Virus record (IMG/VR): IMGVR_UViG_3300024235_000284
DNA from: an uncultured virus (IMG/VR IMGVR_UViG_3300024235_000284)
Taxonomy: Duplodnaviria > Heunggongvirae > Uroviricota > Caudoviricetes
Strand: one strand, 5' to 3'
Length of the DNA stretch: 64,000 nucleotides
In this document: positions 3,860 to 43,748 of the stretch, one piece after another
Layout of the letters: each line of letters starts with the position of its first letter
How positions within the stretch are numbered: position 1 is the first letter of the stretch
Notes under the pieces: generated by a model
Told to the model about the DNA's origin: nothing
Databases searched by the model: none
Seen by the model: the letters and a program-made list of their open reading frames with translations, nothing else
Made by a program: the position numbers and the translations under genes

Positions 3860-4216
3860 TCATGTTGAGTGGTGTTTGATTTGTCTGGCCAGTTGAAGCA
3901 GAATCTTGTCTGCATCCAGGTGAGCTCGTTCACGCATCAGTTCATCCAGCGTGGAGGGTGCGTCAACTCTCACACCATGTGATTGTAACGTGGTTACCAC
4001 GTTGATGTACTGTGCTCTTGCCTGTCTCCATTTGTCAGGATCCTTGATCATGGATCTCATGATCCTTTTCTTGATGGTCTCGTCACTCAAAAATATTTTG
4101 GCGGTTCTAATTTTTGCAGCAGTGGTCTCCAACTTTGTGATAGCAGATGTGTCAATTTCTGCTTTGATGTCAGTTGTGACAACTGTGGCTAACAATAGTA
4201 TCATGTGTTTTCTCAT
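3860..4216 (-). CDS. Hypothetical exported protein
   Basis: MRKHMILLLATVVTTDIKA signal-like N-terminus. Confidence 0.6.
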   Translation of the reverse strand: MRKHMILLLATVVTTDIKAEIDTSAITKLETTAAKIRTAKIFLSDETIKKRIMRSMIKDPDKWRQARAQYINVVTTLQSHGVRVDAPSTLDELMRERAHLDADKILLQLARQIKHHST

Positions 4217-6089: not shown

Positions 6090-6165
6090 TGGAGCCACCT
6101 GTCGGGATCGAACCGACGACCACCTGATTACAAATCAGGTGCTCTACCAGCTGAGCTAAGATGGC
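6090..6165 (-). tRNA. trnT: tRNA-Thr(UGU)
   Basis: GCCATCTTAGCTCAGCTGGTAGAGCACCTGATTTGTAATCAGGTGGTCGTCGGTTCGATCCCGACAGGTGGCTCCA; full cloverleaf, encoded CCA. Confidence 0.97.
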
Positions 6166-6689: not shown

Positions 6690-6766
<77 letters not shown>

Positions 6767-8883: not shown

Positions 8884-9091
8884 AACACACCAGTTGTCTC
8901 ACCGGCATGTCTTTTGATTTCATTGTCCATCCTCCTGCAGGTGGTTTGTCGCCAGGCATGCCAACGAATGGTCGGTCGTACGCTACTGCGGTCCCTACTT
9001 CAACTGGTTGATCGTTGTGGTGATATCGAAACTGTTGTGCTTCTTCAAAATCATCTACCACATAGATGTCTGTTGATTTGTAACTCATCAC
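8852..9091 (-). CDS. Hypothetical protein
   Basis: ORF. Confidence 0.55.
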   Translation of the reverse strand: MMSYKSTDIYVVDDFEEAQQFRYHHNDQPVEVGTAVAYDRPFVGMPGDKPPAGGWTMKSKDMPVRQLVCFDDIYFQEDE

Positions 9092-9306
9092 CTGTCTAAC
9101 AACTTGTAAAGTCGTTCAATTTGTGTGGTTATCAACATCAAGACCACCAACATTCCTACTGTGTTTATAATAATTGTCATCATTTTAATACTTTCTGTTC
9201 CAATAATTATATATTATGTGAACCACCATTGCAACTACCATCACATGAAAAATCCAGAAAAATGGATCATGTTTGGATCGTTCGAATATATCCACAATGA
9301 ACTCAA

Positions 9307-9504
9307 TCATGACTTGTCTGGTCCCCAGAAACCACACACGCATGGCTTGTTGTCTTGTTGATTGGCACCGGCTTTGTATCCCTTGTCATAAGCTTCAGTC
9401 TTGAGCTTGAGAATGTATTTGTTTAATGCATTCCATAGATCATCATCAGATAGCTGAGAGTCACTGCTCTTCACAAAATCCTTAAATTCCTCATCTGTCA
9501 TCAT
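9307..9504 (-). CDS. Hypothetical protein
   Basis: ATGA overlap. Confidence 0.55.
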   Translation of the reverse strand: MMTDEEFKDFVKSSDSQLSDDDLWNALNKYILKLKTEAYDKGYKAGANQQDNKPCVCGFWGPDKS

Positions 9505-9663
9505 TTAACGCTCTTCTCAATTGCTACCAATGTATTGATAAATTTAATTGCAGATTGTACCCGATGGCGATTTGGTAGTTGCCCCCAGCTTATTCTGCTT
9601 TGTGACTCTTCTAATATCGACTGCACCGTGTGCAGCATGTCTAGTTTGTCTTGTTGTGTCATA

Positions 9664-9885
9664 TCAAATATGAGCTGTGTTGACCGCACCAGCTTTCTTG
9701 GTGGCACTGCGTCCATGACGACCCGGCTGATATCCTTTCCAGTTGCTATATGTTGCGGCATCCATCACTTGAATGCGTCCAGCGGTCTTGTGATCGTATA
9801 TCATCACGCCTCGATAAGGCACAACTTCTGGTTTCACCTTGGGTGGAAGCTTGCCTAGTATGTCATCAATTAATTTATTGCTCAT
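9664..9885 (-). CDS. Hypothetical protein
   Basis: ATG 6 nt below TACAAT of TTGCGT-17-TACAAT. Confidence 0.65.
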   Translation of the reverse strand: MSNKLIDDILGKLPPKVKPEVVPYRGVMIYDHKTAGRIQVMDAATYSNWKGYQPGRHGRSATKKAGAVNTAHI

Positions 9886-9923
9886 ACGTGTATTGTATGA
9901 AACAACACATGAACACGCAACTT

Positions 9924-10103
9924 TTATTGTTGTTCTTTGAGCTTGTTTGTCTCGTTAACTATTTGAGACTCAAATAGTTTAATAATATCCTCTTGTCGCT
10001 TAGTTCTTGGTTCCGGGAATCGATCTTTAAACACCTCCAGATTGTCAAACAGCACTACAATTTTAGTCCAAGTCTTTTGCGCGGGTGGATTCAACTTTTT
10101 CAT
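9924..10103 (-). CDS. Hypothetical protein
   Basis: MKKLNPPAQK...; start chosen from a late-promoter-like TAAGTA motif. Confidence 0.55.
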   Translation of the reverse strand: MKKLNPPAQKTWTKIVVLFDNLEVFKDRFPEPRTKRQEDIIKLFESQIVNETNKLKEQQ

Positions 10104-10149
10104 ATACTTACTTATGTGCACCACGAATAGACACATAAGTAAATATATG
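10101..10149. promoter_or_regulatory. Divergent late-type promoter pair forming a 17-bp inverted repeat
   Basis: CATATACTTACTTATGT (10101-10117) vs ACATAAGTAAATATATG (10133-10149); 16/17 complementary, each ending on an ATG. Confidence 0.6.
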
Positions 10150-10824
10150 GCGATATCATTAGACACTAGCGCAAGCGCGTACATACAGAAAACCTCAGGA
10201 GGGGACCTGCAATTCACCTTGACCGGGTTCAACAATCTACCCTCACCCACATCATATTCAGACACAAAAAGTTATCTTAGCTTTGCATGCGAATTTGTGT
10301 ATCCTAGTGGCATCTCCGGTGACACGATAGAAAGTATAGAGGTGTATTTCAAGTGGAACAATATCACGGTGACTGGTGATGGTGACATTGTGGCGTTGCT
10401 CCAGTTCTCTCGGCTTGATGAGTTAACTTTTGACGATGGTAATGTATACGGAAAAATTAATAACGATGACTATGATATTTATGCCTATCATGCCGGCATC
10501 GACGCAGATGATTGGACCGGTGGACATTATCTAGATTGGCGCAACGCAACACAAATGTCACAAGGTCGATTTCATCCTCACTCCGGGGGTTCACCAACCG
10601 GTTCGATTGATTTGGTGTTTAAAGATGATAGTTACACGGTGGTTGAACAATGGGACAACTGGGATGGTGGATTGGTACTGACAAGAACCAATGGACCAGG
10701 TGGTGGAGCTCTGAACACTGGATCCAATTTCACGTACAGTGGCCTGTCGACCTCCGGCGGGTCAGGAGGAGCATCAGGTGATCCACACATCAATACATTT
10801 GGTGGTGACAATTACACTCTCTGA
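10147..10824 (+). CDS. Probable virion protein with C-terminal GDPH (VWD N-terminal) tag
   Basis: MAISLDTS...; Gly/Ser linker, then SGDPHINTFGGDNYTL-stop. Confidence 0.75.
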   Translation: MAISLDTSASAYIQKTSGGDLQFTLTGFNNLPSPTSYSDTKSYLSFACEFVYPSGISGDTIESIEVYFKWNNITVTGDGDIVALLQFSRLDELTFDDGNVYGKINNDDYDIYAYHAGIDADDWTGGHYLDWRNATQMSQGRFHPHSGGSPTGSIDLVFKDDSYTVVEQWDNWDGGLVLTRTNGPGGGALNTGSNFTYSGLSTSGGSGGASGDPHINTFGGDNYTL

Positions 10825-10826
10825 AG

Positions 10827-11468
10827 ATGCAAAACCGGTTTTTTTGCATGTTTGACACGCTTGACGTGATGAGCAACCGGCTGGTGGTCAACGTGCAAAC
10901 CAAAACCAACATACCACAAGCCATCGCTGAGAATTTATGTGCCAACCTGACACATGAACAACGGGTCAAACATGCCAGTCGGCCCAGCAGCGACTACATG
11001 GAACTGGTGTGGGTCAAACTACATGGGATCTTCCAATGCACCATCAACATCGAGACTGGTGAGATCCTGTTCGGTAATGGTACCAAGTACGCACCAGACC
11101 AGACCATATCCATGAAGGAACATCAATTCAACCATCCACAACATGGAGCAAGGTGGAATCTGTTGAGCGAGTGTGACACATGGGACATGAATTATCACAA
11201 CCGAGGCCCAATCAAACTGATGAGCAAGAATATACACATCAACAACACAACACAAATGCCACAGGATCGTCAACAATATTACGCACGATCTTCAATCAAT
11301 CATCAAATCGTCTGCACCATATTACGACATCCACATGTCACCATACACACGTGTAGTCGTAAATGTGATCTGAGAGTGGATGTGGCGTGTGACTGGCGCA
11401 ACTCCGCCGGTGCGTTGGTTGCTGAATCAGACGATAATGTCCGAGACAACTTAACACATGTCAAATAA
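10827..11468 (+). CDS. Candidate free-standing remainder of a VWD-like domain
   Basis: Begins 2 nt after the GDPH-tag gene; NRFFCMFD...RLVVNVQT reads like the strands following the GDPH hairpin. Confidence 0.5.
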   Translation: MQNRFFCMFDTLDVMSNRLVVNVQTKTNIPQAIAENLCANLTHEQRVKHASRPSSDYMELVWVKLHGIFQCTINIETGEILFGNGTKYAPDQTISMKEHQFNHPQHGARWNLLSECDTWDMNYHNRGPIKLMSKNIHINNTTQMPQDRQQYYARSSINHQIVCTILRHPHVTIHTCSRKCDLRVDVACDWRNSAGALVAESDDNVRDNLTHVK

Positions 11469-11997
11469 AACTAGCTTAGGTTATATACATGTCCCAAGAA
11501 CCGGTGGATGGAGCTTGAGATCATCAATATGTGGAGACAAGACGCATCGTATAAAATATCTTGGCCACGCGCCTAACTCTAGAGATACACAAGACAAATA
11601 CACAACAGTCGCATGTGTGAGACATCCGTATGATCGTTTCATCAGCATGTACAAACATCGATTAGCACATTATGTTGATGACAGCAAATGGAAAATTCAA
11701 CACTATATCGACAACATGTCACGTGGTGAGTGGAAAGGGTACAATAATCATTGGTTTAAACATAACCCTCCGGACATTTTGATGAGATACACACATTTGC
11801 AAAGTGATTGGGAGAAATTAAATCGCTTGTTCGATCTGAATTTATCATCACTACCACATTTGCATGACACTAGCACGGTACAATACTCTGAACCGTCTCC
11901 AGAGCAAAAGGCGAACATATTACATATGATTAGATCCGATATAAAATATTATGAACAAATAATACTCAAAGAGTGTACTTACATCCATCAAATGTAG
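11458..11997 (+). CDS. Sulfotransferase family protein (Sulfotransfer_2-like)
   Basis: YIHVPRTGGWSL (5'-PSB loop) and VRHPYDRFISMY (3'-PB) motifs. Confidence 0.85.
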   Translation: MSNKTSLGYIHVPRTGGWSLRSSICGDKTHRIKYLGHAPNSRDTQDKYTTVACVRHPYDRFISMYKHRLAHYVDDSKWKIQHYIDNMSRGEWKGYNNHWFKHNPPDILMRYTHLQSDWEKLNRLFDLNLSSLPHLHDTSTVQYSEPSPEQKANILHMIRSDIKYYEQIILKECTYIHQM

Positions 11998-12700
11998 TCA
12001 CGTGTGGATCACCAGTACATCCGCTGGTAGTGGCCATGCTTTGTAACGGGTTGCTGACCACACCATATTCACTAAAGCCACTGTATGTGCTCCCGTCATC
12101 TGATATTAACGCTCGACCAGCAGTACCAGATGGAGCGTTGTAGATGCCGACAGCTCCTGCGGACCGGCGGTTGCCTCCGGTTGGGCTGATCGCGTTTGTT
12201 CCGACCCAAGCTTCGCCTGGGGCAATGGTATCCGATGAGGTAAAATAAACAATTTTCACCCCAGCTTCTTTATCGACCCGTATTCCATGCCTCCACCAAT
12301 TGTTTTCATAACAATCCGAATCGGACCAAACCGGGACACTACCTCCCGTTGCATCCGGTGCGTAAATTGCTCCACCGTCATCATAACCAAGCATGTCATC
12401 TGTATCATCAGTGATGCCATTATGAGCAAGATCCCACTCTATCTTCAAATCATTATTATTATCAAGTGTGAACTGTGGGCCCAGTGTGATCTCCATACCC
12501 TGTAAATGGTCGTTAGTGTTCATCGTACAACTAGCGTAACCGCTCGGATAGTTAGAGGGATAAGTAAACTCTAGTTTGATTCGAACTCTGAAATAACTCG
12601 CGTTTGTTACGCTCTCGTTAATTCCAGAAGCACCATCAAGATGCAAATATAATTTATTGTTACAATTTGTTAAATATACATCACTGTATGTTCTCGCCAT
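11966..12700 (-). CDS. Probable virion protein with C-terminal GDPH (VWD N-terminal) tag
   Basis: Ends CTGDPHVTTFDGCKYTL-stop; TATAAGTA 5 nt before ATG. Confidence 0.75.
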   Translation of the reverse strand: MARTYSDVYLTNCNNKLYLHLDGASGINESVTNASYFRVRIKLEFTYPSNYPSGYASCTMNTNDHLQGMEITLGPQFTLDNNNDLKIEWDLAHNGITDDTDDMLGYDDGGAIYAPDATGGSVPVWSDSDCYENNWWRHGIRVDKEAGVKIVYFTSSDTIAPGEAWVGTNAISPTGGNRRSAGAVGIYNAPSGTAGRALISDDGSTYSGFSEYGVVSNPLQSMATTSGCTGDPHVTTFDGCKYTL

Positions 12701-12738
12701 ATAGGTACTTATACAAACTCAAGTGTTTATACAATTAA

Positions 12739-12915
12739 TCAGTCCATTTTAACATATCGCTTTTCAGATCGATTCATAAGCAACGCACGATTGAGCGTGT
12801 GTGCTTCATATTCAGTTAAAATTGTCTTGCGTACATGTTTGTATTTGTTCCAACCAGCATGCCATTCGACTAGTTCATATGTGTGTTCAGGTGTGTTATC
12901 AGGTCCTCTCATCAT
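12739..12915 (-). CDS. Small hypothetical protein (58 aa)
   Basis: MMRGPDNTPEHTYELVEWH...; downstream of TTGATT-17-TATAAT. Confidence 0.55.
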   Translation of the reverse strand: MMRGPDNTPEHTYELVEWHAGWNKYKHVRKTILTEYEAHTLNRALLMNRSEKRYVKMD

Positions 12916-12949
12916 TATATTATAACGACCAAGTCACAGGTAATCAACC

Positions 12950-13537
12950 TCATTTTTTCCACCAGAAATCGTTAGCCAGTAACCAATACTTACGATCATA
13001 CCAATAAAGCAGTCTATGGTTGTTGTGTCTCAATGCGTAAAACCAACCATGTTTCACACTGTACATAAACTCTCTATCGTCACCAAACAACCACACCCAT
13101 TTCAAATCTTCACGGTATAACCACCCCTCGAAGTTCAGTGTGTGTTGAGATGTGGTAGAGTATGTCCAACCATGGTCTTCATGAGCTCTCCACTGGTAAT
13201 CATTATGTATAGTTTGTGGTTCTGACTTGACAATTGGTGTAGAATCATTCCTTTCTGGCACCTTGAATGTTGGTAGTGTGTCTTGTATGTGTTCGCCCTG
13301 CATGTCATCTATTTTTTGTTGTTTCATCTCTTCCATAATCTTCATGGTTTTCATGGTGGCGTCTCTCCAGCTGTGACACATGATCATGTGTCGACTAACG
13401 TCCAACGGCTCACTAGTGTTCACAGTCACACAATAATCACAACCACACAAAAAATCTTTGATTTGTACTATAGTACCAGCATGTGTAGCGACCCCCAACA
13501 TCAAACATACACCAACACATTTACATATAATACTCAT
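12950..13537 (-). CDS. Exported protein with Trp/Tyr-rich GW-repeat C-terminal domain
   Basis: Signal-like N-terminus; HGWTY, GWLYREDLKWVW, FMYSVKHGWFY, LLYWYDRKYW. Confidence 0.7.
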   Translation of the reverse strand: MSIICKCVGVCLMLGVATHAGTIVQIKDFLCGCDYCVTVNTSEPLDVSRHMIMCHSWRDATMKTMKIMEEMKQQKIDDMQGEHIQDTLPTFKVPERNDSTPIVKSEPQTIHNDYQWRAHEDHGWTYSTTSQHTLNFEGWLYREDLKWVWLFGDDREFMYSVKHGWFYALRHNNHRLLYWYDRKYWLLANDFWWKK

Positions 13538-13562
13538 GTCTTACAATTATTTAATCTAACAC

Positions 13563-13591
13563 AAAAAAACCCACCGGATTTCGCCGGTGAG
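13563..13591 (-). terminator. Intrinsic terminator-like hairpin
   Basis: CTCACCGG-CGAAAT-CCGGTGGG followed by T7 on the minus strand. Confidence 0.65.
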
Positions 13592-13679
13592 CCACTCGAC
13601 TGACTAGTGTCAGAGGGTGTAATTCATACTGTAAAGTATATATAAGTATATAAGGTACTCTATATACTTAAATATATAT

Positions 13680-15596
13680 ATGTCAGGTGAGATAACCATA
13701 GCGTCACAGTTTGTGACTGGAGGACCAGTGGGTGTGGGACCGCTGGTGGATATCACCTATCAACCAGCATTGGATGACAATGACAGTTATGTGGGTCGTA
13801 GCATAACAACATACATGAGTGGATGTTGCGTAACACAGACTGTATCACAAGAACAATATATATTGGATCAAGCAGAGTACGATAGAATACTTGCTTCCCG
13901 GCGCGTGGTGATTCCAATCAATTCAACCCCGGGGATAATCAACAGCGAATGTGGTCAGTTGAGTTTTGATTTGAAATCCCGATGGTTCTCAACTATAAGT
14001 GACGGGTCAGACGTGATGCTTGAGGGTGATGCTGTCAGTGATGATGTGACACTCACAACTGAAACCGGACAACCACTAGCAACTGAAAATGATGTGGTGT
14101 TGCAGATACAAGGTGGGGCGGTGGATGCGCTTTTCGTTTTGCAGACTGAAGATGATGAGGTATTGCAGTTCGAGAGCGCCACCCGCGCGCGTATCAGCGT
14201 GTTCAAACATATCAACGGGCTGAAAAAAATATCCAATCCATACACTGACGACTGGTACAACAACAATCATCCACCAGCTGATGAATACGGATTTTACACA
14301 TCCAACACAACAGTAACCATCCCGGACATCGAGCCTGGAGAGTACATCATGGAGTCAGTAACCACCATACCGGGTACCAATTTTACCAGTGTTAAAACCT
14401 GGTCATTCCCAGTGATCATAACTGAGTGTGATCGTGGGGTCAACATAACCAGTGAGTGTGATGGTGTGGGTGTGAGTCTGGGTGTTGATTGCATGCGTTC
14501 GACAAGCAGTCGAGGGATTGGTGACAATTGGGTGGTGCGAGTGTACCAGGGTGATGAGTATCAGTATGTGAGTCGTGAGGTTGAACAAGAGCAGGTGGAG
14601 ATTGTTGGCACGTGTCTCAAGACGGAGACATTAGATTGTATTGAATTTGAAGATGGTGTGCCCATAATATTGGAAGGGTACGCCCGGGTGATTGAGTATG
14701 GTGGCACGGATGCCGCGCGGTTGGAATGCCTGCTGGTGGAGGCTGGTGGTGTGGTCACTGGAGAGACTATTGATCACCAGGCGGACAATCAGATTGTAGA
14801 TTGTTTGCAGCATGTGGTGCAACAACAAGTGGTGTTGACGAATTGCATACAAACACACACATGCGAGTCGTTGCAAACCCACACCGGGGAATGCATACAA
14901 TTTGAAGGTTATGCAAAACATGTCGATTGTGTGGATGTTGTGTCAGATGACCAAACTGAGCTGCTGGATCAAACAATATATCCCATTGTCACAGAGTCTG
15001 GACATGCTGTTATGATGGAGGATGGTGAGACCATGCTGGAGAAACAAGGGCGTTATGATGTTCTGAGATTCGAAACAGAGGATGGTCGTGGTCTGTTCAC
15101 AGAAACTGAATTTGCGCTGGAACGTGAGACACATGAAGAACTGCTCACCACCGAGCAATCCCGACCATTGGACATATCAAAGCATGTGAATACACCAGGC
15201 ATGTACCATCCAGACCATGTGTCCGCGTTGGAAGAGCAATCACGTGAACTGGTGCTCACTACCAGCGTGTCAGCATTGAGTTCCGCTTTTATCTCTCTGC
15301 CATCTCCAGCGGAATACTACATACAAGTTGATGTGTATGATCAACTTGGAATACCAGTGACAACTGACACTGTGGATGGACTGTATGTACCTTCATGTGA
15401 TGGTATCGAGACTGAGTCAGCCACATTGATTGAGTCAGAGGATAATATGGTGATACAGCTGGAATTAACTGATGTTGTGTATTTTGATGGAGTGTGCTTG
15501 TCATTGGAGAGTGACATGAATGACTGTCTGCTCACGGAACAAAGTGTTCCAATCGAACCAGAGGGATTTTACCCAAATTGGTTGCTAAGAGCATAA
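13680..15596 (+). CDS. Acidic virion structural protein with repeated (L/I)xTE(D/T/S)G motifs
   Basis: TAAATA before ATG; many LTTETG/LQTEDD/IEFEDG/IVTESG/FETEDG repeats. Confidence 0.7.
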   Translation: MSGEITIASQFVTGGPVGVGPLVDITYQPALDDNDSYVGRSITTYMSGCCVTQTVSQEQYILDQAEYDRILASRRVVIPINSTPGIINSECGQLSFDLKSRWFSTISDGSDVMLEGDAVSDDVTLTTETGQPLATENDVVLQIQGGAVDALFVLQTEDDEVLQFESATRARISVFKHINGLKKISNPYTDDWYNNNHPPADEYGFYTSNTTVTIPDIEPGEYIMESVTTIPGTNFTSVKTWSFPVIITECDRGVNITSECDGVGVSLGVDCMRSTSSRGIGDNWVVRVYQGDEYQYVSREVEQEQVEIVGTCLKTETLDCIEFEDGVPIILEGYARVIEYGGTDAARLECLLVEAGGVVTGETIDHQADNQIVDCLQHVVQQQVVLTNCIQTHTCESLQTHTGECIQFEGYAKHVDCVDVVSDDQTELLDQTIYPIVTESGHAVMMEDGETMLEKQGRYDVLRFETEDGRGLFTETEFALERETHEELLTTEQSRPLDISKHVNTPGMYHPDHVSALEEQSRELVLTTSVSALSSAFISLPSPAEYYIQVDVYDQLGIPVTTDTVDGLYVPSCDGIETESATLIESEDNMVIQLELTDVVYFDGVCLSLESDMNDCLLTEQSVPIEPEGFYPNWLLRA

Positions 15597-15604
15597 ATAT
15601 TTAC

Positions 15605-17092
15605 ATGACAAAAATTAGCGATTTAGACAACTTACCAGGATCTCTGGCTGGTAATGCGATCTTGCCTGGGGTACAATCAGGCACCACATATGGCATAACA
15701 GCGGATCAGATAAAAACATATGTGGAAACCGGTGGAGGCAGCTCAGCCGGTAGTGGTGTCACCATGTTCGGTGGAGGCACCGCGGCCCCGATCATCACCC
15801 GGGACCTGGTTTATGGGGTGCCACAATCAATATCAATTGTCAGCGGAGGAGACGGTTACGACAATGCCAATGGTACTGTGTTGTGTTGTGGTCATGTTGA
15901 GGGTTCAGGATTGACGTATGGCACCACAGGTCCTGGAGGAGATGTGAACTACAATGCGGCAGAGTATCTAGCGAGAGGTTTGCATGTGAAGGTCACTGTA
16001 ACCAATGGAGAGGTGGTGGATGCTAAGATAGTTAATCCAGGTCAAATGTTTAGAGTGGGTGATCAGTTGGACATCACGTTGCAGAAAAGCGTGTATAGTA
16101 ATGGTGGTACAACAACAGCTGGGGGCAACTTCACCCCGGCGAAGATTAGAATCGATGTGGTCGAGCCATTCATGGACGGTTTTATCACTAACAATCACTC
16201 CGCGTTAGGAGGCACCGCCCCCAATGTGCTCAAAGGAGGTGTCGGATATGGAGCAGCCTTGGCCTCCGGAAGTTCTTTCTCCAGAAAAAATCCAAACAAA
16301 TCAGGGGTGAGTCCAACCTACTCATCCGGGGAATATTTCCCCATGGAGATGGATTGGACGGCGCCTTTGTTCATGGCACACACTCAATCTGCGCAGACAG
16401 AGGGTGACATTGCCCCCACCGCCACCGGTCAGAGCACTCATGATTTCGCAGGCTTTGATCATGCATATGTAGGTCATCGACCCTTCGCAGGACATGTTAA
16501 TGCTACTCAGACAACCAGCCATCAGGTTCACACGTTCAATCTTGCGGTGCCAGGAGTGTGGGCCATAGTGTACCAAACAAAATCCTCTTCGTCGCCATTC
16601 ACCAACGATGGTAACATGTACAAATCTGAATCCTCGAGCGCATTCGAGGATCAATGGCAAACTGTTGATCGTATGTTACCAGAGTACACCGCTGGTCAAT
16701 TGAGAGTCAATGGGGCATTTGCCACCGGCAATGGAGTAGAACACGGCTCACCGGACAGTGTAATCGAAAGAGGCGAGTTACACGTGATCGTGAACCCGGC
16801 ATTGGACATCCCCAGCAGCCAGATCCAGTCAGCAGTGTCAACCGCGATAAAGACAAAAGCCACCATCAATGGAGTTAGTTACAATGGTGTGTACAATCCT
16901 GCAGGAAGCAACACAACACGTGAGGTGGACAGCACCACCACATCATTTGCAGTAAACACGTATCAGCAACACCGGACTCGGGATACCGGGCATAATAATG
17001 CTAACGTAGATCATACTTGGAATCAATACCAACAATGCAGCTTTTACTTCGTGAACGTATTTGATTTGTTAGGCAACACGTCCACAAGTTGA
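15605..17092 (+). CDS. Tail fibre/baseplate-associated structural protein
   Basis: MTKISDL N-terminus; SIVSGGDGY and IVNPGQMFRVGD beta-repeats; ATAAATA 5 nt before ATG. Confidence 0.7.
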   Translation: MTKISDLDNLPGSLAGNAILPGVQSGTTYGITADQIKTYVETGGGSSAGSGVTMFGGGTAAPIITRDLVYGVPQSISIVSGGDGYDNANGTVLCCGHVEGSGLTYGTTGPGGDVNYNAAEYLARGLHVKVTVTNGEVVDAKIVNPGQMFRVGDQLDITLQKSVYSNGGTTTAGGNFTPAKIRIDVVEPFMDGFITNNHSALGGTAPNVLKGGVGYGAALASGSSFSRKNPNKSGVSPTYSSGEYFPMEMDWTAPLFMAHTQSAQTEGDIAPTATGQSTHDFAGFDHAYVGHRPFAGHVNATQTTSHQVHTFNLAVPGVWAIVYQTKSSSSPFTNDGNMYKSESSSAFEDQWQTVDRMLPEYTAGQLRVNGAFATGNGVEHGSPDSVIERGELHVIVNPALDIPSSQIQSAVSTAIKTKATINGVSYNGVYNPAGSNTTREVDSTTTSFAVNTYQQHRTRDTGHNNANVDHTWNQYQQCSFYFVNVFDLLGNTSTS

Positions 17093-17565
17093 ACAATCTC
17101 ATGACTGAACCAGTACACTTTAGCGAGTTATTGGACAACACTTGTGTCACGCTGAGCTCGACTGTGGATCCAGCGGAACCGATCGCCATGAGCGAGTTCT
17201 ATGGCATGGCGTGTCTCACACAGACTTTCACTGGAGCGGCACCCACAGCGAGCCCGCAGCTAGAGCAGATAGAGGTGGAACTTGACATGATATCATATTA
17301 TGATTCAGCCACCAGCAGCATCACCTTACGACCAGTTGATGTGAATCAGAATCTAGAAAGATTCACTGGTAATTTCACCTGGGGATTTGAACTGATCTCT
17401 CCAACAGGTAACACGATCGCCTCCGCAGAGATGTTGACAGATGACAATAATTATCAATCATTGTCCAATCCAGATGCTGGTATATACACAGTGATGTCAA
17501 TCGTGTACTATAATCGCTCGCGAGTGTTTTACGAGGTTAGTTTCAACTCGGTCACGATCACTTAA
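17089..17565 (+). CDS. Hypothetical structural-module protein
   Basis: Follows the fibre-like gene; start may be ATG 17101. Confidence 0.6.
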   Translation: MNNLMTEPVHFSELLDNTCVTLSSTVDPAEPIAMSEFYGMACLTQTFTGAAPTASPQLEQIEVELDMISYYDSATSSITLRPVDVNQNLERFTGNFTWGFELISPTGNTIASAEMLTDDNNYQSLSNPDAGIYTVMSIVYYNRSRVFYEVSFNSVTIT

Positions 17566-28797: not shown

Positions 28798-28922
28798 GTA
28801 GTTATTTATTTACTAACAAGGGATTATCTCGTGTTAAAATTCATTATGTGTTGATTTTTCGTGGGTGAGAGTACCGTTTTGATGTAACAATCGGTTCATT
28901 TTAAACTTGTCTCTGTACATTT

Positions 28923-29732
28923 CTAGGATTTGTTTATATTTTGTTGTATGCTTTTGTATATATTACCCTTCAGTTTATAGCTCCTATCACAATCTTTACA
29001 CACACTCAATATGTTTCTGTTATTATTAAAGTGTTGTTCTCTGTACATGTTTAATTTCTCGTTGTGATTAACATACTCGTGTATCGATTGATCCATTACA
29101 TTTGACATTACAATCTGCTCTTCCCAATCATCACAACACAGATTATAATCACCATTCCAGTTTATAAACATTTTTTGAAATAGAAAAGCACACGGGTGGT
29201 CTATGGATATAGGTTTGTTTTTTGTTTTTAAAAAACCACCTCGGTTACTAAATTTAGTGTTTATACTATTATTACACTCCACATAATTAACACCTTTATC
29301 GGGTTTGAATAATACTTGTACATTTTTATATCGGTTATATTTTTCAACCTGATGTTTATAATATGTTTCATCATCTACATAGACATCTAGATATATTTTC
29401 CAAAACTTATGTATATAGTCTTCATATAGATGCATTTTTTTACCGTTCGTGTACATGTAACATCTATATTTGGCGTCATCGGTTAATAATATATCTAATA
29501 TATTGTTAAAATTATTTGTTAAAGTTGGTTCGCCTCTACCGGTGATTGATACCAGTTTATCATAATTGCAATCATTCAAATGCTCTCTTATTTTATTACA
29601 TGTTTCAATACTCATGTGTAAATTTCTATTCGGGTACCCGGATGATCGTGGACAAAAACTGCATTTGAGGTTGCATAATTCTGTAGGATTGATTTCGATC
29701 CTCTGCATGTATTTTAAATAATCAATAATCAT
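28923..29732 (-). CDS. Radical SAM protein with SPASM/twitch domain
   Basis: CNLKCSFC; C-terminal PC...INWNGDYNLCC...CKDC. Confidence 0.92.
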   Translation of the reverse strand: MIIDYLKYMQRIEINPTELCNLKCSFCPRSSGYPNRNLHMSIETCNKIREHLNDCNYDKLVSITGRGEPTLTNNFNNILDILLTDDAKYRCYMYTNGKKMHLYEDYIHKFWKIYLDVYVDDETYYKHQVEKYNRYKNVQVLFKPDKGVNYVECNNSINTKFSNRGGFLKTKNKPISIDHPCAFLFQKMFINWNGDYNLCCDDWEEQIVMSNVMDQSIHEYVNHNEKLNMYREQHFNNNRNILSVCKDCDRSYKLKGNIYKSIQQNINKS

Positions 29733-29734
29733 AA

Positions 29735-30367
29735 TTATCTAAAGCAACTTAATGTAGATAGATCTATACCATAATCGCTCGACTGGCCGCTATCTATATT
29801 ATTTGGTTGTGTTTTATAAAATTGTTCAACACCCCTGACAGCCTCTTCCGGAGTCATATACATATGCCACCCTATCGCCGGTACTGTTTTATTATCTATA
29901 TCATTATAGTATATACTGGACCTACCGTCATACCGGGATCGTATCAACCAATCTCTTGTATGTTTATCATTTGTTAGTATCATACCCCCACGTCCAATTG
30001 AAAGGATTTTTTTACTATGAAACGATACACAATACAGAGTATCATTATATTCCTTATACATACATTCAGTGAATCGTTGTGCAGAATCAATCACCGGTAA
30101 TGGAGCTAATCTATATGTACCTGACCAATTTAAATCAATAAAATCTATACCAAAACCCGCATGCAGAGCTTGCATTGGTACAGATATGTATGTGCGTTTA
30201 GGTATTTCAATAATATTACTCTCGGGAACATTACCAGTATACCTACAATACATCATGCTCAAAAACAATGCATTTGTACAGCTATCAACTGCAACTCCAT
30301 ATTTACTACCAGCGTATTCAGCAATTATGCTTTCAAAATACTCAACATTATCCCACAAAGTTTTCAT
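29735..30367 (-). CDS. DegT/DnrJ/EryC1/StrS sugar aminotransferase (short form)
   Basis: AVDSCTNALFL, IDSAQ, SFHSKKILSIGRGG. Confidence 0.88.
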   Translation of the reverse strand: MKTLWDNVEYFESIIAEYAGSKYGVAVDSCTNALFLSMMYCRYTGNVPESNIIEIPKRTYISVPMQALHAGFGIDFIDLNWSGTYRLAPLPVIDSAQRFTECMYKEYNDTLYCVSFHSKKILSIGRGGMILTNDKHTRDWLIRSRYDGRSSIYYNDIDNKTVPAIGWHMYMTPEEAVRGVEQFYKTQPNNIDSGQSSDYGIDLSTLSCFR

Positions 30368-31253
30368 ATATTTTACGTGTACCAGTAATAAAGTCCGTTT
30401 TTGGTTTCCAACCTAATAGCTTTTCTGCTTTTGCACAACAAACATTCTTACCAGTATAATCACCCCCACGTTCATTAATGTGCACGATATTTAAATCAAT
30501 AGACAACAGCTCTTGTACTCTTTGTGCAACATCTAAAACACTTATATCCTCACAACCGTCTAGATTTATAATCTGGTTACGTGCACTGCGTTCCAATGCC
30601 ATACAATTACCCATACCATGGTCATCAACATATAAAAACCTCCTACTATTAGAACCATCACCTACAATTGTTAATGATTTGGTCTTTATGGCGTCTGATA
30701 AAAACTTATAGAAAACGGCAGATGGGTGTGAATTTATACCGTATGCGATGCCATAACGTAATATAGTATAATCTAGCCCTTTCATTTGATGATAATTAAG
30801 TATCAGAGATTCGCTCGATATCTTTGTTGTTGTGTATATATGCTTACTATTTTGTATCAATAGGCTCGTATCTTCATCTACGGAATGTACGTCACAAGTG
30901 CTGTACACCCATACTGAGCTGGAAAATATAATATGGGATATACCTAAACAATCCATCGCGTCTAGTACATTCATTAAACCTATGATATTTGTATTTGCTG
31001 CACATCTTGGTATTTTTATATTCTCCTCATGTGTGTGTATCGCTGCTAACATAAAAACACTATCAATATCATATTTACCTAGTGCACATAATATTGATTC
31101 ATAATTTCGCACGTCGGCATATATATATTTCGCTTCAGCTACGCTAGGTGGCTGTATGTCTATTATTATAACTTTATGCCCATTAGCTAACAACTGTTTT
31201 GCTGTACTTGTACCAATAAAACCACTACCACCGACAATTGCTACATTACTCAT
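30348..31253 (-). CDS. NAD-dependent sugar epimerase/dehydratase
   Basis: GGSGFIG, FSSS, YTTTK, LRYGIAYG. Confidence 0.92.
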   Translation of the reverse strand: MSNVAIVGGSGFIGTSTAKQLLANGHKVIIIDIQPPSVAEAKYIYADVRNYESILCALGKYDIDSVFMLAAIHTHEENIKIPRCAANTNIIGLMNVLDAMDCLGISHIIFSSSVWVYSTCDVHSVDEDTSLLIQNSKHIYTTTKISSESLILNYHQMKGLDYTILRYGIAYGINSHPSAVFYKFLSDAIKTKSLTIVGDGSNSRRFLYVDDHGMGNCMALERSARNQIINLDGCEDISVLDVAQRVQELLSIDLNIVHINERGGDYTGKNVCCAKAEKLLGWKPKTDFITGTRKIYENFVG

Positions 31254-32188
31254 AATATAGATTGGTTATTATAAAAAGCACGCGCTCTATTTAATACACT
31301 ATTATCAATTGTTTTCATGTATGATATACAATCTTCAATGGTTTGTTCAAATGTATATTGTAATTCTACTCCGATTGATTTTAATAACTCGTCGTGTGTT
31401 TGCGCTACTATATTTGTGTTGAGCTCTTCCCCAACTCTCATAGGTATGTGTTTAATTTTTGATTCACTCTTTAACAATTTTATAATTAAATTTGCAACTG
31501 CGTTACAACTTACAGCATGGCCCGTTCCTACATCATATATTTTATCAATTTTACCCATTCCTTTACGTGTTGATGTGATAGCTATATTTGCAATATCTCG
31601 TACATCGATAATATCGACAGTCTGTTCCCCGGTACCATATATCTCTATATCTAAATTGAGCATCGCTTGACATATTGCCATTGGTATAAATTTCCTCACC
31701 GGATACAAATGCTGGCGCGGCCCTGTAGCATTCATCCATCTTAGTATGGTTATATCCATATTATGAATATTCTTGTACATCTTAGCAAAATTTTCTGCTG
31801 TAATTTTTGATATGGTGTATGTATTTTCCCAATAACTAGAAAATATAGGTTTCGTGGGGTGAAATACTCTATTTACATTGTAATCCAAGCATGATTGAAG
31901 CACGTTAAATGCACCTTTGATATTTGTATCAATGGCGCGTTCAGTTTGAAAAACAAGCTCATGAGTACCGAGAACTCCTGCGCAGTCATAAACCTCTTCA
32001 CATCCTTTGATGTATCTATCTAGCGACGTCTTGTGACATATATCACCATCAACATACATAACATTATCATTATGATCAACCTCTGGTTTTGATTTGTCAA
32101 AAACAATAACTTCATTATCCTCTTTAGATAATATATCAACAATATGACTACCGATAAATCCTGAACCACCTGTAACTAATATCTTCAC
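31250..32188 (-). CDS. NAD-dependent sugar epimerase/dehydratase
   Basis: TGGSGFIG, YTISK, LRWMNATGP. Confidence 0.92.
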   Translation of the reverse strand: MKILVTGGSGFIGSHIVDILSKEDNEVIVFDKSKPEVDHNDNVMYVDGDICHKTSLDRYIKGCEEVYDCAGVLGTHELVFQTERAIDTNIKGAFNVLQSCLDYNVNRVFHPTKPIFSSYWENTYTISKITAENFAKMYKNIHNMDITILRWMNATGPRQHLYPVRKFIPMAICQAMLNLDIEIYGTGEQTVDIIDVRDIANIAITSTRKGMGKIDKIYDVGTGHAVSCNAVANLIIKLLKSESKIKHIPMRVGEELNTNIVAQTHDELLKSIGVELQYTFEQTIEDCISYMKTIDNSVLNRARAFYNNQSIL

Positions 32189-32197
32189 TACAATACT

Positions 32198-32249
32198 ATT
32201 ATATAGTATCGGAATATCAATTGCAATACAAACTTTAATATATTATAAT
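32198..32249. promoter_or_regulatory. Divergent promoter pair sharing one palindromic -35
   Basis: ATTATA(32198-32203)-17-TTGCAA(32221-32226)-17-TATAAT(32244-32249). Confidence 0.75.
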
Positions 32250-32256
32250 ATATGTT

Positions 32257-33075
32257 ATGAAGGACATTTCACAATCAGATATACAAAATAATATACCTTT
32301 GGTGTCACGTGCAGAAAATTGGTTGGTTGAACCTATGTTCATCGCCGGGCCTTGCACAGTAGAAAATATTGATCAACTACAACAAACAGCCAAAGCGCTA
32401 AAGGCATCCGGTATAAAATATATGCGCGCGGGAGCCTATAAGCCAATGACATTTCCGTATAGGAATAATGTCGCGTATGAGTTAAGGGAGCACGGATTGA
32501 GTCTATTAAAATCAGTGAAGGAAGAATATGAAATTAAAATTGTTACTGAAGTTGTAGATTTGAGAACCACGGAAAGTGTAGCTCAAGTTGCGGATATAAT
32601 TCAAATCGGTACGAGGAACATGTACAATTACCCGTTACTTGAAACTGTGGCTCAATTTGAACAACCTATATTACTCAAAAGACACTTTGGTGCTAGTTTG
32701 AGGGACTGGCTGGGAGCCGCCGAGTATATATTAAAAAATGGTAATGATCGTGTTATATTATGTGAGAGAGGTGTTGTAGCTCCACACACACATGAAACTA
32801 CATCTAGATTTATTGCTGATATACAAGCAATACCGGCAGTCAAAATGTACACAAATCTACCTGTAATAATAGATCCATCACATGCAACATTTAATAGAAA
32901 TTTAGTACCATCAATTACATATGCAGGAATGGCAGCCGGTGCTGATGGATTTATAATAGAAGCGCACCCAACTCCTGAAATAGCGGCAGTAGATCCTTTA
33001 AATGCAATCCCGCTCAATAAGCTAAAAGATGTTGTGGATAAATCTAAACGTATAAGTAAAATAATAAATGAGTGA
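32257..33075 (+). CDS. DAHP synthase I-beta / KdsA-family PEP aldolase with variant substrate motif
   Basis: IAGPCTVE, RAGAYKPMT, QIGTRNM, LCERG, IDPSH, IIEAH. Confidence 0.85.
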   Translation: MKDISQSDIQNNIPLVSRAENWLVEPMFIAGPCTVENIDQLQQTAKALKASGIKYMRAGAYKPMTFPYRNNVAYELREHGLSLLKSVKEEYEIKIVTEVVDLRTTESVAQVADIIQIGTRNMYNYPLLETVAQFEQPILLKRHFGASLRDWLGAAEYILKNGNDRVILCERGVVAPHTHETTSRFIADIQAIPAVKMYTNLPVIIDPSHATFNRNLVPSITYAGMAAGADGFIIEAHPTPEIAAVDPLNAIPLNKLKDVVDKSKRISKIINE

Positions 33076-33898
33076 TGAATTAACGATTACATGCAATTGT
33101 GATGAGAGGTATTTGGACCATTTGATACCCTTAATTAAATCGATCAACAAAAACACTAGCAACACAAGATTGTATATAAGACTAGTGAATGTAAAAGATG
33201 ATACACTGGTCAGAGAAATAATAAATACAAAATCAGAAATAATACATGATAGCAAACCCTTATCTACTAAACGATGCTTACTGACCGGAGATCAAATGTT
33301 AAATGCACCTATATTTGAGAAGAAAAAACACCACCCATTACTATTAAGTGAACAAGCATGTTATTGCAGTAATATAAAATACAATACCATCAACAACCTA
33401 CTCGAACGAGGTGATCAACATATATTGCAAATGGATGTAGATGCAATCGTCAGGAGAGATTTAAATAATTTAATTGGACTCATAAAAAAATATGATATTG
33501 TCATACGTAAAGACATACCCAATTACGGTAGTTTGGTTAAAAATTATAGATCAAAATCAGAACTAGGGGGCGTTACATACAGGCAGGGTGTTATCGGGAT
33601 TAATAACACACTAACAGTAAGAAAACTCTTCCGAGAGGTAGAGGATTTAGTGATGGAGGACATGAAGAACTGGGATGCAGATCAGATTAATTTTCAGAGA
33701 GTGTTTGAATCCATGCAACAGGATATTAAGTTTTACAACTTGCCTGTCACGTATAGGGACACTTGTCATGATTTTGCGGGTGGTGATCAAACCGGTGGTG
33801 AATTAAATGCTGGTTCGCACATTTGGTCCGGTTCGTATAAAGCTAAATTCACTCAAGATAGGTATTTACGTGAAAAGAAAAGGTATGCATCACTGTAA
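33068..33898 (+). CDS. GT-A fold glycosyltransferase (nucleotide-diphospho-sugar transferase-like)
   Basis: LQMDVDAIV DxD motif; WDADQ. Confidence 0.7.
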   Translation: MSDELTITCNCDERYLDHLIPLIKSINKNTSNTRLYIRLVNVKDDTLVREIINTKSEIIHDSKPLSTKRCLLTGDQMLNAPIFEKKKHHPLLLSEQACYCSNIKYNTINNLLERGDQHILQMDVDAIVRRDLNNLIGLIKKYDIVIRKDIPNYGSLVKNYRSKSELGGVTYRQGVIGINNTLTVRKLFREVEDLVMEDMKNWDADQINFQRVFESMQQDIKFYNLPVTYRDTCHDFAGGDQTGGELNAGSHIWSGSYKAKFTQDRYLREKKRYASL

Positions 33899-34599
33899 TG
33901 AAGCAAGAAATACATATATGCTATTTAATAAATGATAAATTTTTAGATCTTACTCTCAACTCTATAAAATATATAAAACTTTTTTTTCAATCTAAAAACC
34001 ATAAATTAAAATTTCATATTATAGGTATAAATGATTTTGAAGTACCTGCCGGCATTAATTTTATAAAGTCAAATTGCACACATTTGCCGATACTACATCA
34101 ACGTGTATACATTCCACACATGCTGGGCGTTGATAGGGTTATATTTATCGATAGCGATACTGTAACAACAACATGCATATCTAAATTATGGGATGTCGAT
34201 CTTAACGGTAATATAATTGGGGCTGTACAACACTACGTCTCGAAAACAATAGGATCTATGATAGATTATTGGTCTTTCGATTTTTCTCCATATATACATT
34301 ATAAAGACAAACCATATTTCAATTGTGGTGTCATGGTTATAGATTGTAAAGAGTGGATTGCTAACAAAGTCGCGGAAAAATGTTTACAAGAGTTCAAAAT
34401 ATATGAAAATACTATCAGACGTGGATGGGATGAACCTGGGTTTAATATTGTACTCATGAATAATTGGAAGAGTTTAGATAGTCGTTGGAACGATTATCCA
34501 GACAAAGGCGCAAAATACAAAAAGACATACATAACACACTACTACGGGCAAGTTTATAAAGGTAAGAATGACCATAATATGTTTATGGTACAGAAATGA
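33898..34599 (+). CDS. Glycosyltransferase family 8
   Basis: RVIFIDSD, YFNCGVMVID, LDSRWN, ITHYYG. Confidence 0.9.
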   Translation: MKQEIHICYLINDKFLDLTLNSIKYIKLFFQSKNHKLKFHIIGINDFEVPAGINFIKSNCTHLPILHQRVYIPHMLGVDRVIFIDSDTVTTTCISKLWDVDLNGNIIGAVQHYVSKTIGSMIDYWSFDFSPYIHYKDKPYFNCGVMVIDCKEWIANKVAEKCLQEFKIYENTIRRGWDEPGFNIVLMNNWKSLDSRWNDYPDKGAKYKKTYITHYYGQVYKGKNDHNMFMVQK

Positions 34600-35180
34600 T
34601 GAGATTGGTTATTGTTGGTAACGGTGCTAGTGTGCTCTGTAATAAGAATGGTAAATTTATCGATGAATGTGATCATGTAATACGTATTAATAAATGGCCA
34701 GGAAAAGGATATGAGGAGTATATTGGCAAGAAGCGAGATATATACTGTTCTTGGAATGGTAGATATAATAGGTGTAATGTAGATTTCTTGTCAACATTTA
34801 ATGAGTTTTGGGTAATGGAAAATAAAAATGACTTTAATACATATAATGTGAGTGTTGAAGTATTACAATATCTGCATCAGAAACAAACACATTACTTGAG
34901 TGAAATAGATATAGTAAACCTAAAGAATGAGATAAATTATGATGGACCGGCGATGCCGTCTACTGGTTTCTGTGCGATATACAAATGCTTAGAATTGTAT
35001 TCTAACGCAGATATATATATTACCGGATTCGATAGCTATATTAAGAGTGGTTGGTTTTGGGATGTATCTGGACCGCGCGCGGCTGCTGCAGCAGGAGGTG
35101 GTAGAGAAGGCCATCCATTCCTTAAGGAATATTCATGTCTTAAAAAATATATCAAATCCGGTAAAATTAAACAATTATAA
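34596..35180 (+). CDS. GT29-like sialyltransferase
   Basis: IVGNG...GKFIDECDHVIRIN (L motif), PSTG (S motif), ITGFD, HPFLKE. Confidence 0.8.
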   Translation: MMRLVIVGNGASVLCNKNGKFIDECDHVIRINKWPGKGYEEYIGKKRDIYCSWNGRYNRCNVDFLSTFNEFWVMENKNDFNTYNVSVEVLQYLHQKQTHYLSEIDIVNLKNEINYDGPAMPSTGFCAIYKCLELYSNADIYITGFDSYIKSGWFWDVSGPRAAAAAGGGREGHPFLKEYSCLKKYIKSGKIKQL

Positions 35181-35840
35181 ACAAGTTAACTTCATGTAAT
35201 GATTTGCCATCTCAAGATCAGCGATTGTGTGTATATCTAGACCCGTCTCTTCAACTTCAACTATAAAGACGTTGTTACCTACCCTTTTACCTTGCCGTAC
35301 TATACTGCTTCGAGTCGCGCAACATACCCCGGTTTTTTCTTCTATAACGTATGATCTTTCTTGTCTACTAGAATAATTTTCCCAGTATAATTTCTTTTGA
35401 TCGCTAGTCCATATATTTTTATACAATCTTTTACCAACAAAGACGGATTCAAGTGATGGTTTGTCTTTAAGCTTTTGTATACATGTATCTATCCACTCTA
35501 CCTCCCGGAAAGGTTGACAGCAGTCCAAATACAAAACGATGTCATAAACATTGTGATTAGCATCTAACCATTTTAATGCATGCTGTAATCCAGACTCAGT
35601 AGTGGATCTATCTTGTGATATTTCTTTAGGTCTTACAAACGGGACTAATGCCTTTTCTTGTTTTGATATTTCTTTTATTGTATCACAATCAGTAGAAACC
35701 ACAACATCATCAATCATTTTGGATTTTTTAGCCTGTCTAATTGTATGTGCAATGAGCGGAATTCCATTTAATTTAGAAACATTTTTACCAGGAAGGCCCT
35801 TAGAGCCACCTCTTGCTAGTATAATACAAACAACACTCAT
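35175..35840 (-). CDS. Acylneuraminate/ulosonate cytidylyltransferase (NeuA-like)
   Basis: IILARGGSKGLPGKN, VVSTD, PFVRP, LDIHTIAD. Confidence 0.92.
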   Translation of the reverse strand: MSVVCIILARGGSKGLPGKNVSKLNGIPLIAHTIRQAKKSKMIDDVVVSTDCDTIKEISKQEKALVPFVRPKEISQDRSTTESGLQHALKWLDANHNVYDIVLYLDCCQPFREVEWIDTCIQKLKDKPSLESVFVGKRLYKNIWTSDQKKLYWENYSSRQERSYVIEEKTGVCCATRSSIVRQGKRVGNNVFIVEVEETGLDIHTIADLEMANHYMKLTCL

Positions 35841-38272: not shown

Positions 38273-38754
38273 TTATATATTTTTCTCCACTGTCTAGTAA
38301 TTTTATCAGCGTTTATATTCATTACCAAGCAATCGTATTTTGGTAACATAACATTAGAAATCGTTTCCTCTGTTGTATCCGTCTTAACATATATTAGTTT
38401 GGTCAGTGGTTTAATGAAGGCGTCAACTTCTGTACCTTTAGTACTTCTCAACGGACATCTAATGATGATAATTTTTGTGGGTTCGTAGTCAAGTAGTTTG
38501 TCATATATATATTGTGACAGTGAACCTAAACCTTGTGTTGGTACTACAATGTAATCAAATTTACTTTTTTTAATATACGGTAGCATTACATCATCACTAG
38601 AAACAGTAAACACATCATTGAAGGTAGTGTTTATCTTCTTTTTAGATCGAATTTTAACGAGCATTGTATGATTGTGGTATAAACTTATATTTGTATCTGT
38701 TGTTTCGTCTCTATGATATTGCTCAAATTTCGTTTTAAATATATGTAATTTCAT
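38269..38754 (-). CDS. Hypothetical protein
   Basis: Coupled ORF in island. Confidence 0.65.
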   Translation of the reverse strand: MKLHIFKTKFEQYHRDETTDTNISLYHNHTMLVKIRSKKKINTTFNDVFTVSSDDVMLPYIKKSKFDYIVVPTQGLGSLSQYIYDKLLDYEPTKIIIIRCPLRSTKGTEVDAFIKPLTKLIYVKTDTTEETISNVMLPKYDCLVMNINADKITRQWRKIYK

Positions 38755-40017: not shown

Positions 40018-40018
40018 A

Positions 40019-43745: not shown

Positions 43746-43748
43746 ATT

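Follow-up and report, generated by a model that had tools for sequence, protein, structure and literature searches.

Von Willebrand D (VWD) domains and their self-cleavage at a Gly-Asp-Pro-His (GDPH) motif have mostly been described in animal proteins of mucus, clotting and signalling. Strand-complementation and plug-socket systems are represented by chaperone-usher pilus donor strands, cohesin-dockerin, SpyTag/SpyCatcher and split GFP, of which SpyTag and split GFP are engineered; to our knowledge, none of these uses a VWD domain or an Asp-Pro motif. A phage VWD system or a split VWD system was not found in the literature. Here, a stretch of 64,000 nucleotides from an uncultured virus (IMG/VR record IMGVR_UViG_3300024235_000284; the whole stretch is called the window) was analysed, which looks like a part of a large uncultured marine phage. 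Two of its genes, A and B, end in the same short GDPH-containing peptide, termed the tag, and the core gene ("ORF2"), which follows gene A, encodes a stand-alone protein predicted to have the VWD fold without the first hairpin of the domain (Table 1). It is rather likely that the locus represents a naturally split VWD domain, in which the tag would dock onto the core protein and possibly cleave itself. The fold and the motif were already known, and the novelty lies in a domain divided between a portable C-terminal tag and a separate core.

Described GDPH-autocleaving VWD domains include those of FCGBP, the MUC2 C-terminus, MUC5AC, RGM/hemojuvelin, BMPER and SUSD2. As reported for FCGBP in PMC10880436, cleavage is blocked by D-to-A, D-to-N and H-to-N changes and stabilises the domain, and the part preceding the cut may be lost if no disulfide holds it; the purpose of GDPH cleavage is called unknown in the Discussion of that paper. 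In contrast to these animal domains, the proposed phage domain would be distributed over two polypeptides and two genes, with the hairpin piece as a portable C-terminal tag on unrelated carriers. Moreover, the phage core has one invariant cysteine, no signal peptide and no C8, TIL or E partner domain, the phage parts are without a Pfam-level sequence match, and the setting is a phage. The inter-alpha-inhibitor heavy chains (ITIH) resemble the phage parts in layout, i.e. a carrier, a GD/PH cleavage site and a VWD-like sandwich of ~240 residues, compared with 226 residues for the tag remainder plus core. Their C-termini are ester-linked to chondroitin sulfate as C-terminal pro-domains of 239/244 residues are removed (PMC7170535). 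ITIH differ in being one chain of the animal secretory pathway; the likeness was judged from description, and a transfer chemistry in the phage would be assumed by analogy. A bacterial self-cleaving module, MIIA/DUF1521 of the type III effectors NopE1 and VIC_001052, cuts after the Asp of GDPH (PMC6506597). It is described as largely disordered until calcium binds, whereas the phage core models as a well-ordered VWD sandwich, and DUF1521 was absent from the Pfam matches of A, B and core (E≤1) and of 20 core-family members (E≤10). The likeness to the plug-socket systems is that a short peptide on many cargos would complete or bind one common partner; the folds are unrelated.

A first-pass annotation, made from the sequence of the window, had reported that genes A and B end in the same GDPH tag, and both were recovered as open reading frames (ORFs) at the positions given there. 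Gene A ends in SGDPHINTFGGDNYTL-TGA and gene B in TGDPHVTTFDGCKYTL-TGA, so that both terminate in GDPHxxTFxGxxYTL-stop. A degenerate DNA pattern for tag plus stop has exactly two sites in the 64 kb, compared with a mean of 0.00 in 100 shuffles, and no further DPH..TF.G site was found in a six-frame scan of the window. Gene A has no match in Pfam, PHROGs, NCBIfam or PADLOC, and gene B and the sulfotransferase gene (Table 1) have none in NCBIfam or PADLOC. Homologs were obtained by a motif-independent search with the whole proteins, three for A (49-99% identity) and eight for B (43-100% identity, one of them identical). The start of gene A is consistent with its homologs P0001-P0003, whose N-termini read MAIS or MAIT. 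The tag and the stop are at the same position in 11/11 homologs (3/3 of A and 8/8 of B), all of which end in GDPHxx(T/M)FxGxxYTL-stop, which bears out the identical stop position that had been described for A and B. GDPH is present in both window tags and in all 11 homologs, including the D and H at which changes block cleavage of FCGBP, and it aligns to the GDPH sites of FCGBP. In the B family, 13 of the 15 final columns are invariant, compared with a mean column identity of 55%. Among 17 distinct tag DNAs, in which the invariant letters are partly imposed by the search pattern, synonymous codons occur at every position and TAA, TAG and TGA are all used, which points to selection on the peptide and not on the DNA. 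The conservation of tag and stop across homologs indicates that the stops of A and B are ancient and selected and are not artefacts of sequencing or decay. Recently broken genes with the tags as functionless leftovers would be the explanation suggested by the unusual stop position, the single point in its favour. The conservation pattern already contradicts this explanation. Tag and stop are retained in every homolog, the most distant of which has 43% identity, and on carriers that are 25-28% identical to one another; no other part of the proteins is as well conserved as the tag, and its codons vary synonymously. Decay therefore appears extremely improbable.

The proteins A and B themselves had been called unrelated, with no evident similarity apart from the tag. 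This is true at the level of BLASTP, where only the last 53 residues align (E 9e-6), but not at the level of profiles, since the comparison of the A family with the B family by hhalign gave 195 aligned columns with a probability of 98.3 and an E-value of 2.1e-14. Judged by their profiles, A and B are distant paralogs.

The occurrence of the tag on other carriers was analysed with related seawater metagenome contigs, the loci of which are numbered with the letter L. A scan of metagenome contigs for tag plus stop, as had been proposed in the first-pass annotation, returned 20 rows on 16 contigs, two of which belong to the phage of the window itself. Together with the 11 database homologs (P0001-P0011), the ORFs of these loci comprise 42 tagged proteins, 32 of them distinct. 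After removal of two fragments shorter than 60 amino acids (aa) and trimming of the last 22 residues, the remaining 30 distinct proteins fell into seven BLAST clusters with 17, 6, 3, 1, 1, 1 and 1 members. At the profile level, a family of 171-aa proteins aligns with the B family only in the last 21 columns and with a LamG protein only in the last 22 columns. Two carriers contain Laminin_G_3 (Pfam, E 3e-15 and 5e-11). A tagged protein of 575 aa (L008, 6321-8048) combines Laminin_G_3 with a zincin-type metallopeptidase signature (HELGH); Reprolysin_3 matched it at the Pfam cut-off and Peptidase_M10 just below, and the tag is therefore likely also borne by an enzyme. While the two genes of the window are related, a tag on mutually unrelated proteins was confirmed with the 171-aa family and the LamG and zincin plus LamG carriers, which share only the last 21-22 residues. 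According to these alignments, the tag is a portable module of ~21 residues, in which a linker of small residues precedes GDPH(I/V)x(T)F(G/D/N)Gx(K/R/N)YTL, and it is found on at least three carrier families unrelated at the profile level and additionally on four singletons. For each core gene there are two tagged genes in the window, L001, L002 and L018, and three in L007. The three tagged genes of L007 (1174-3318) are located on the same strand; the core gene, on the opposite strand, is inserted between two of them, and the two upstream ORFs of L007 as listed overlap one another.

For the core protein, no family match was found in Pfam, PHROG, NCBIfam or PADLOC. One full-length copy each (35-51% identity) was detected by tblastn and a family hidden Markov model (HMM) in L001, L002, L007, L010 and L018, and the family HMM also found a single copy in the window's own contigs; the ORF is, on this comparative evidence, a real gene. 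A phmmer search of 1.84 billion representatives with the core protein gave 17 proteins at E≤1e-3, 15 of which are stand-alone proteins of 162-237 aa that align from their first 1-10 residues. The other two, P0025 (1668 aa) and P0028 (2550 aa), have long multi-stretch matches and in Pfam only scattered sub-threshold ones; they were regarded as repeat or composition noise and excluded from the core alignment. Fused forms of tag and core were absent from the 17 representatives, and a comparison of the core profile with proteins of 416-2000 aa also gave none, which is weak evidence. Relatives with an intact full-length fusion, which according to the first-pass annotation would have pointed to decay or an assembly artefact, were thus not found. 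The only invariant cysteine of the core family is C180. Conserved residues R4, F6 and C7, together with homologs that begin M-x-R-x-F-C-M, point to the earlier of two possible starts; the entry for the core in a public protein atlas starts at residue 8, a later ATG (window 10827-10848). A hairpin ATGCAAAACCGGTTTTTTTGCAT at the start of the core gene was rejected as a candidate element, as it is no better than shuffles (z -1.03) and is lacking in relatives.

The arrangement of the core gene relative to the tagged genes bears on the question of recoding, i.e. a read-through or shift at the stop that would yield A plus core as an ordinary single VWD protein. The conserved core N-terminus of L001 and L002 begins with GTG directly behind the tagged gene, in frame and separated from it by a single TAA, as would be expected for read-through. 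However, the frame and the spacing vary. The core ATG of the window is located 2 nt after the TGA of gene A, in the -1 frame, and L010 has a TTG start ~20 nt downstream of the tagged gene, in another frame and with in-frame stops. The core gene of L007 lies on the other strand, and that of L018 is separated from the tagged genes by 2.5 kb. Altogether, the core is found directly behind a tagged gene in four of six contexts (0-20 nt; window, L001, L002 and L010). The GTG, TTG or ATG starts at the conserved core N-terminus, the lack of a slippery heptamer before the stop of gene A, and the fact that there is nothing to read into downstream of B-type and other tagged genes also argue against recoding. 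Furthermore, the junction of A and core is covered at ≥99% identity and without indels by contigs of three metatranscriptome runs from three studies, although presence in an RNA library is not proof of transcription. The differing frames, strands and distances across relatives imply that the core must function as a chain of its own. From these sequences, conserved read-through or frameshifting between A and core is unlikely, and recoding as an explanation of the locus is considered very improbable.

The AlphaFold2 model of the core, calculated with an alignment of 20 sequences, has a predicted local distance difference test score (pLDDT) of 90.2 and a predicted template-modelling score (pTM) of 0.86. 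In a Foldseek search of the PDB with this model, VWD-containing chains made up 25 of 36 listed rows, among them the first 14, with FCGBP D10, Cypridina luciferase, VWF, MUC5AC, MUC2 and MUC5B at probabilities of 0.92-1.00. The Foldseek check that had been suggested for this ORF thus returned mainly VWD-containing chains, though with weak E-values. Among viral models, the best match was an uncharacterised Megaviridae protein (E 2.1e-4). As modelled, the core has the VWD beta-sandwich fold. The complementary piece is recognisable in the tags, since those of three relatives match positions 2-18 of the 156 positions of the Pfam VWD profile, and the tag of B matched the GDPH starts of FCGBP VWD domains by phmmer (whole-chain E 1.2e-5).

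The register of the two pieces was derived from FCGBP. The core model aligns to FCGBP D10 (8qci_B) from residue 4094, and in PMC10880436 the motif of D10 is numbered D4080-P4081-H4082, with Q4094 as a hydrogen-bond neighbour of the Asp. GDPH and the following 11 tag residues correspond to 4079-4093, and the core therefore starts at the very next residue. For mouse FCGBP, under the assumption that the sequence index equals the entry numbering, the tag aligns to 1652-1668 (GDPH at 1656-1659) with a projected end at 1670, and the core aligns from 1671. According to the model, the tag and the core add up to a single VWD domain that is divided at one exact position. A continuous domain was not observed, as the alignment of the core starts only with the residue directly behind the hairpin, and the hairpin is encoded at the ends of other genes, before a stop codon. 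The earlier proposal that the core is the missing VWD remainder is thus supported by the fold model, by the start of the match behind the hairpin and by gene linkage, while a VWD match at the sequence level was not obtained.

The following course of events is proposed. An ancestral gene of the type carrier-GDPH-VWD would have been broken by a stop codon just after the first hairpin, whereby the hairpin and a short Gly/Ser linker (~21 residues) turned into a portable C-terminal tag, and the remaining ~210 residues would be made as one separate protein per genome stretch, beside two or three tagged genes. The tag, disordered alone, would insert into the core as the missing beta-hairpin and complete the VWD sandwich, so that any tagged protein could dock onto the same socket. 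In the AlphaFold2 model of B alone, the tail residues 200-227 and 229-244 are below pLDDT 50. In the completed sandwich, the Gly-Asp-Pro-His turn would be in an environment like that of FCGBP, RGM or MUC2 and would probably self-cleave between Asp and Pro. Cleavage would leave a 13-residue peptide locked in the core, and the carrier, then ending in a new C-terminal Asp, would be released or passed on. That the tag binds the core in trans is judged to be reasonably likely, and, provided that binding is true, cleavage after binding has a similar likelihood. As for the role, display or maturation of accessory lectin-like or protease virion proteins is inferred and favoured.

Several points weigh against the split-domain interpretation. 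The contact of tag and core is inferred from register, fold and linkage, and the VWD kinship of the core rests on one predicted model from 20 sequences. The Foldseek E-values are weak (9e-3 and up, none ≤1e-3), the TM score is ~0.4 and the superposed part comprises ~125 of the 213 core residues. None of the 20 core-family members matches Pfam VWD (PF00094) even at E≤10, and the core-family profile finds no VWD chain among PDB sequences; A, B and core of the window likewise lack a Pfam VWD match at E≤1. The tags score 14.7-16.3 bits, compared with the VWD cut-off of 22.9 (E 0.013-0.038). The Gly/Ser/Ala linker before GDPH is without an obvious first strand and most tags are without cysteine, so that cleavage would free the carrier, which is a poor fit to pure docking. 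A Cys located 2-3 residues before the Gly of GDPH is present in six of the eight B-family proteins and in two L007 tags, and absent in the A, 171-aa and LamG families. Moreover, the core gene was not found in 11 kb of L008 and 12 kb of L016, which are incomplete contigs with tagged genes present. Finally, the family is known only from uncultured seawater contigs, and the evidence beyond sequence consists only of presence in RNA libraries. Matches for tag plus stop, for B and for core were 0 in the IMG/VR viral contigs, the 185,579 GTDB species genomes gave 0 matches for a relaxed tag-plus-stop pattern and 0 for the core, and cultured-phage records gave no tblastn match for the core. The complex prediction for the core (20-row alignment) with B residues 205-244 (8-row alignment), performed with no controls, gave scores of 0.02, 0.50 and 0.01 and is neutral. 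Searches of the PDB with core profiles also listed IL-17A (E 0.12-0.76) via a YYNRS patch, with one row at E 1.1, which was dismissed as chance level.

The tagged genes in stretches without a found core gene (L008, L016 and short contigs) could also mean that the tag works without the core, being kept, for example, to be recognised by a protease or an assembly factor or to direct packaging, while the core would be an independent VWD-fold protein. It would agree with this that the core is never directly behind B or the 171-aa family and that it was modelled confidently without any hairpin. However, the tag is exactly the missing piece of the core in exact register, five of six contigs (≥9 kb or with visible flanks beside a cluster-1 type gene) carry both, and the invariance of the VWD-specific GDPHxxTFxGxxY would be hard to explain for an unrelated signal. 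A function of the tag alone is accordingly regarded as unlikely.

If the split-domain interpretation holds, the fate of the new Asp leads to a further possibility, namely covalent coupling like that of ITIH, in which cleavage would activate the new C-terminal Asp for transfer to a glycan or protein, with formation of an ester or amide. The target could be, for example, a sulfated polysaccharide from the phage's own enzymes, and the discarded "pro-domain" would then consist of the core and the 13-residue peptide. In ITIH heavy chains, an ester bond joins the C-terminus to N-acetylgalactosamine (GalNAc) of chondroitin sulfate (PMC7170535), and the VWD-like sandwich predicted for ITIH3/5/6 has GDPH located between its strands one and two (PMC10880436). 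The tag remainder and the core (13+213 residues) are similar in size to the ITIH pro-domain. The core gene shares its last 11 nt with a gene for a carbohydrate-type sulfotransferase (Pfam Sulfotransfer_2, E 5.1e-8; PHROG 3347, galactose-3-O-sulfotransferase, E 1.1e-7), homologs of the latter are located directly after the core gene in L001 and L002, and the window additionally holds an APS-kinase-like gene and a 17-kb sugar-biosynthesis block. The phage may thus make a sulfated glycan, and the presence of the sulfotransferase in the same operon would suggest a phage-made sulfated polysaccharide as target. Conversely, the likeness to ITIH rests on layout and size by description, and for FCGBP the cleaved fragments are described in PMC8267560 as held by disulfides and not by new covalent links. 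The sulfotransferase neighbourhood is circumstantial, as it is found in three of six contexts; L018 adds a weak candidate at the level of motifs (single-comparison E 0.002), located 1.5 kb upstream of its core gene. Covalent coupling is therefore considered doubtful. The same low likelihood is assigned to a two-part protein-ligation device, in which the core would capture a tagged protein, cut the Asp-Pro bond and hand the protein, by way of its activated C-terminal Asp, to a sulfated glycan or virion protein, and such a device as a split, trans-acting microbial counterpart of inter-alpha-inhibitor heavy-chain coupling is, by this analogy, equally improbable.

In case of a truly split domain, the hairpin with the cleavage site and the rest of the domain would be separate proteins that can be mixed at will, and docking, cleavage and the fate of the new Asp would be directly testable. 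With regard to phage biology, it would represent a new means of attaching exchangeable accessory proteins (lectin-like, protease or Ig-like) to a single adaptor. With regard to protein engineering, a natural tag of 15-21 residues with a 24-kDa partner, possibly self-processing, would be a candidate tool. If the link to the sulfotransferase is real, it would point to sulfated-glycan chemistry in marine phages.

Table 1. Features of the split VWD candidate locus and of its surroundings in the 64,000-nt window.
Feature	Position	Strand	Length	Remarks
Gene A	10147..10824	+	225 aa	beta-rich carrier domain, Gly/Ser linker, C-terminal tag
Tag of A	10777..10824	+		GDPHINTFGGDNYTL then TGA; pattern match
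Core gene ("ORF2")	10827..11468	+	213 aa	predicted stand-alone VWD-fold protein without the domain's first hairpin
Sulfotransferase gene	11458..11997	+	179 aa	overlaps core gene end by 11 nt
Gene B	11966..12700	-	244 aa	same tag; converges on sulfotransferase gene; no core gene behind
Tag of B	11966..12013	-		GDPHVTTFDGCKYTL then TGA; pattern match
tRNA-Thr (TGT)	6090-6165	-
tRNA-Met (CAT)	6690-6765	-
Sugar-biosynthesis block	about 28900-45700		~17 kb	low GC content, 32-36%
Gene for tail-fibre-like protein	46262-51601		1,778 aa	Mtd_N at start, Peptidase_S74 (intramolecular chaperone) at end; adjoins sugar-biosynthesis block
APS-kinase-like gene	57324-58157			cytidylyltransferase-like end

Upstream of the start codons, A and B have a common ATAAGTA 5-6 nt before the ATG (window 10135-10141 and 12706-12712). 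The late-type promoter motifs of the first-pass annotation are thereby loosely supported, with the heptamer present before both ATGs and not enriched in the window (12 found compared with 9.2 expected). Among the relatives, the tagged and core genes of L002, L007, L008, L016 and L018 have a seemingly clearer (G)AATAAATA ahead of their ATG, at a distance of 5-7 nt or, in L008, 15 nt, and the start regions of the relatives are without a Shine-Dalgarno-like sequence. The start motif may represent an A/T-rich start context or a promoter from which near-leaderless mRNAs arise; together with the absence of Shine-Dalgarno-like sequences, it may hint at a host that lacks classical ribosome-binding sites. 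In the region 9800-13800, the numbers of sigma-70 sites and terminators found by scanning did not exceed those in shuffles. Two RNA contigs from two studies begin at 10157/10158, where DNA contigs continue, which is a weak hint at a 5′-end near the start of gene A. In run X8, parts of the window are without cover by RNA contigs.

The window encodes ribonucleotide reductase subunits, a DnaB-like ATPase, UvdE and a DUF932 protein. The sugar-biosynthesis block contains epimerases/dehydratases, two radical-SAM/SPASM proteins, an aminotransferase and a DAHP/KDO8P-synthase-like gene. The locus is adjoined at 13680-17565 by three consecutive ORFs on the plus strand (638, 504 and 158 aa) without a Pfam or PHROG family; the GC content of this region is higher and its GC skew is strongly positive. 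No DNA match for window positions 9000-14000 was found among 50,697 cultured-phage records. Proteins identical to that of gene B are present on contigs of up to 193,724 bp, and a contig of 224,342 bp carries a relative of gene A with 66% identity. In the DNA run X3, a contig of 56 nt joins position 11992 to 12685 (4-nt overlap tgta; shorter side 26 nt) and skips 692 nt (11993-12684), i.e. almost all of gene B. The depth was 8.5 for the joining contig, 9.5 for the contig containing B and 17.7-19.5 for the flanks, which may be taken as a hint that gene B is present in only about half of the X3 population.

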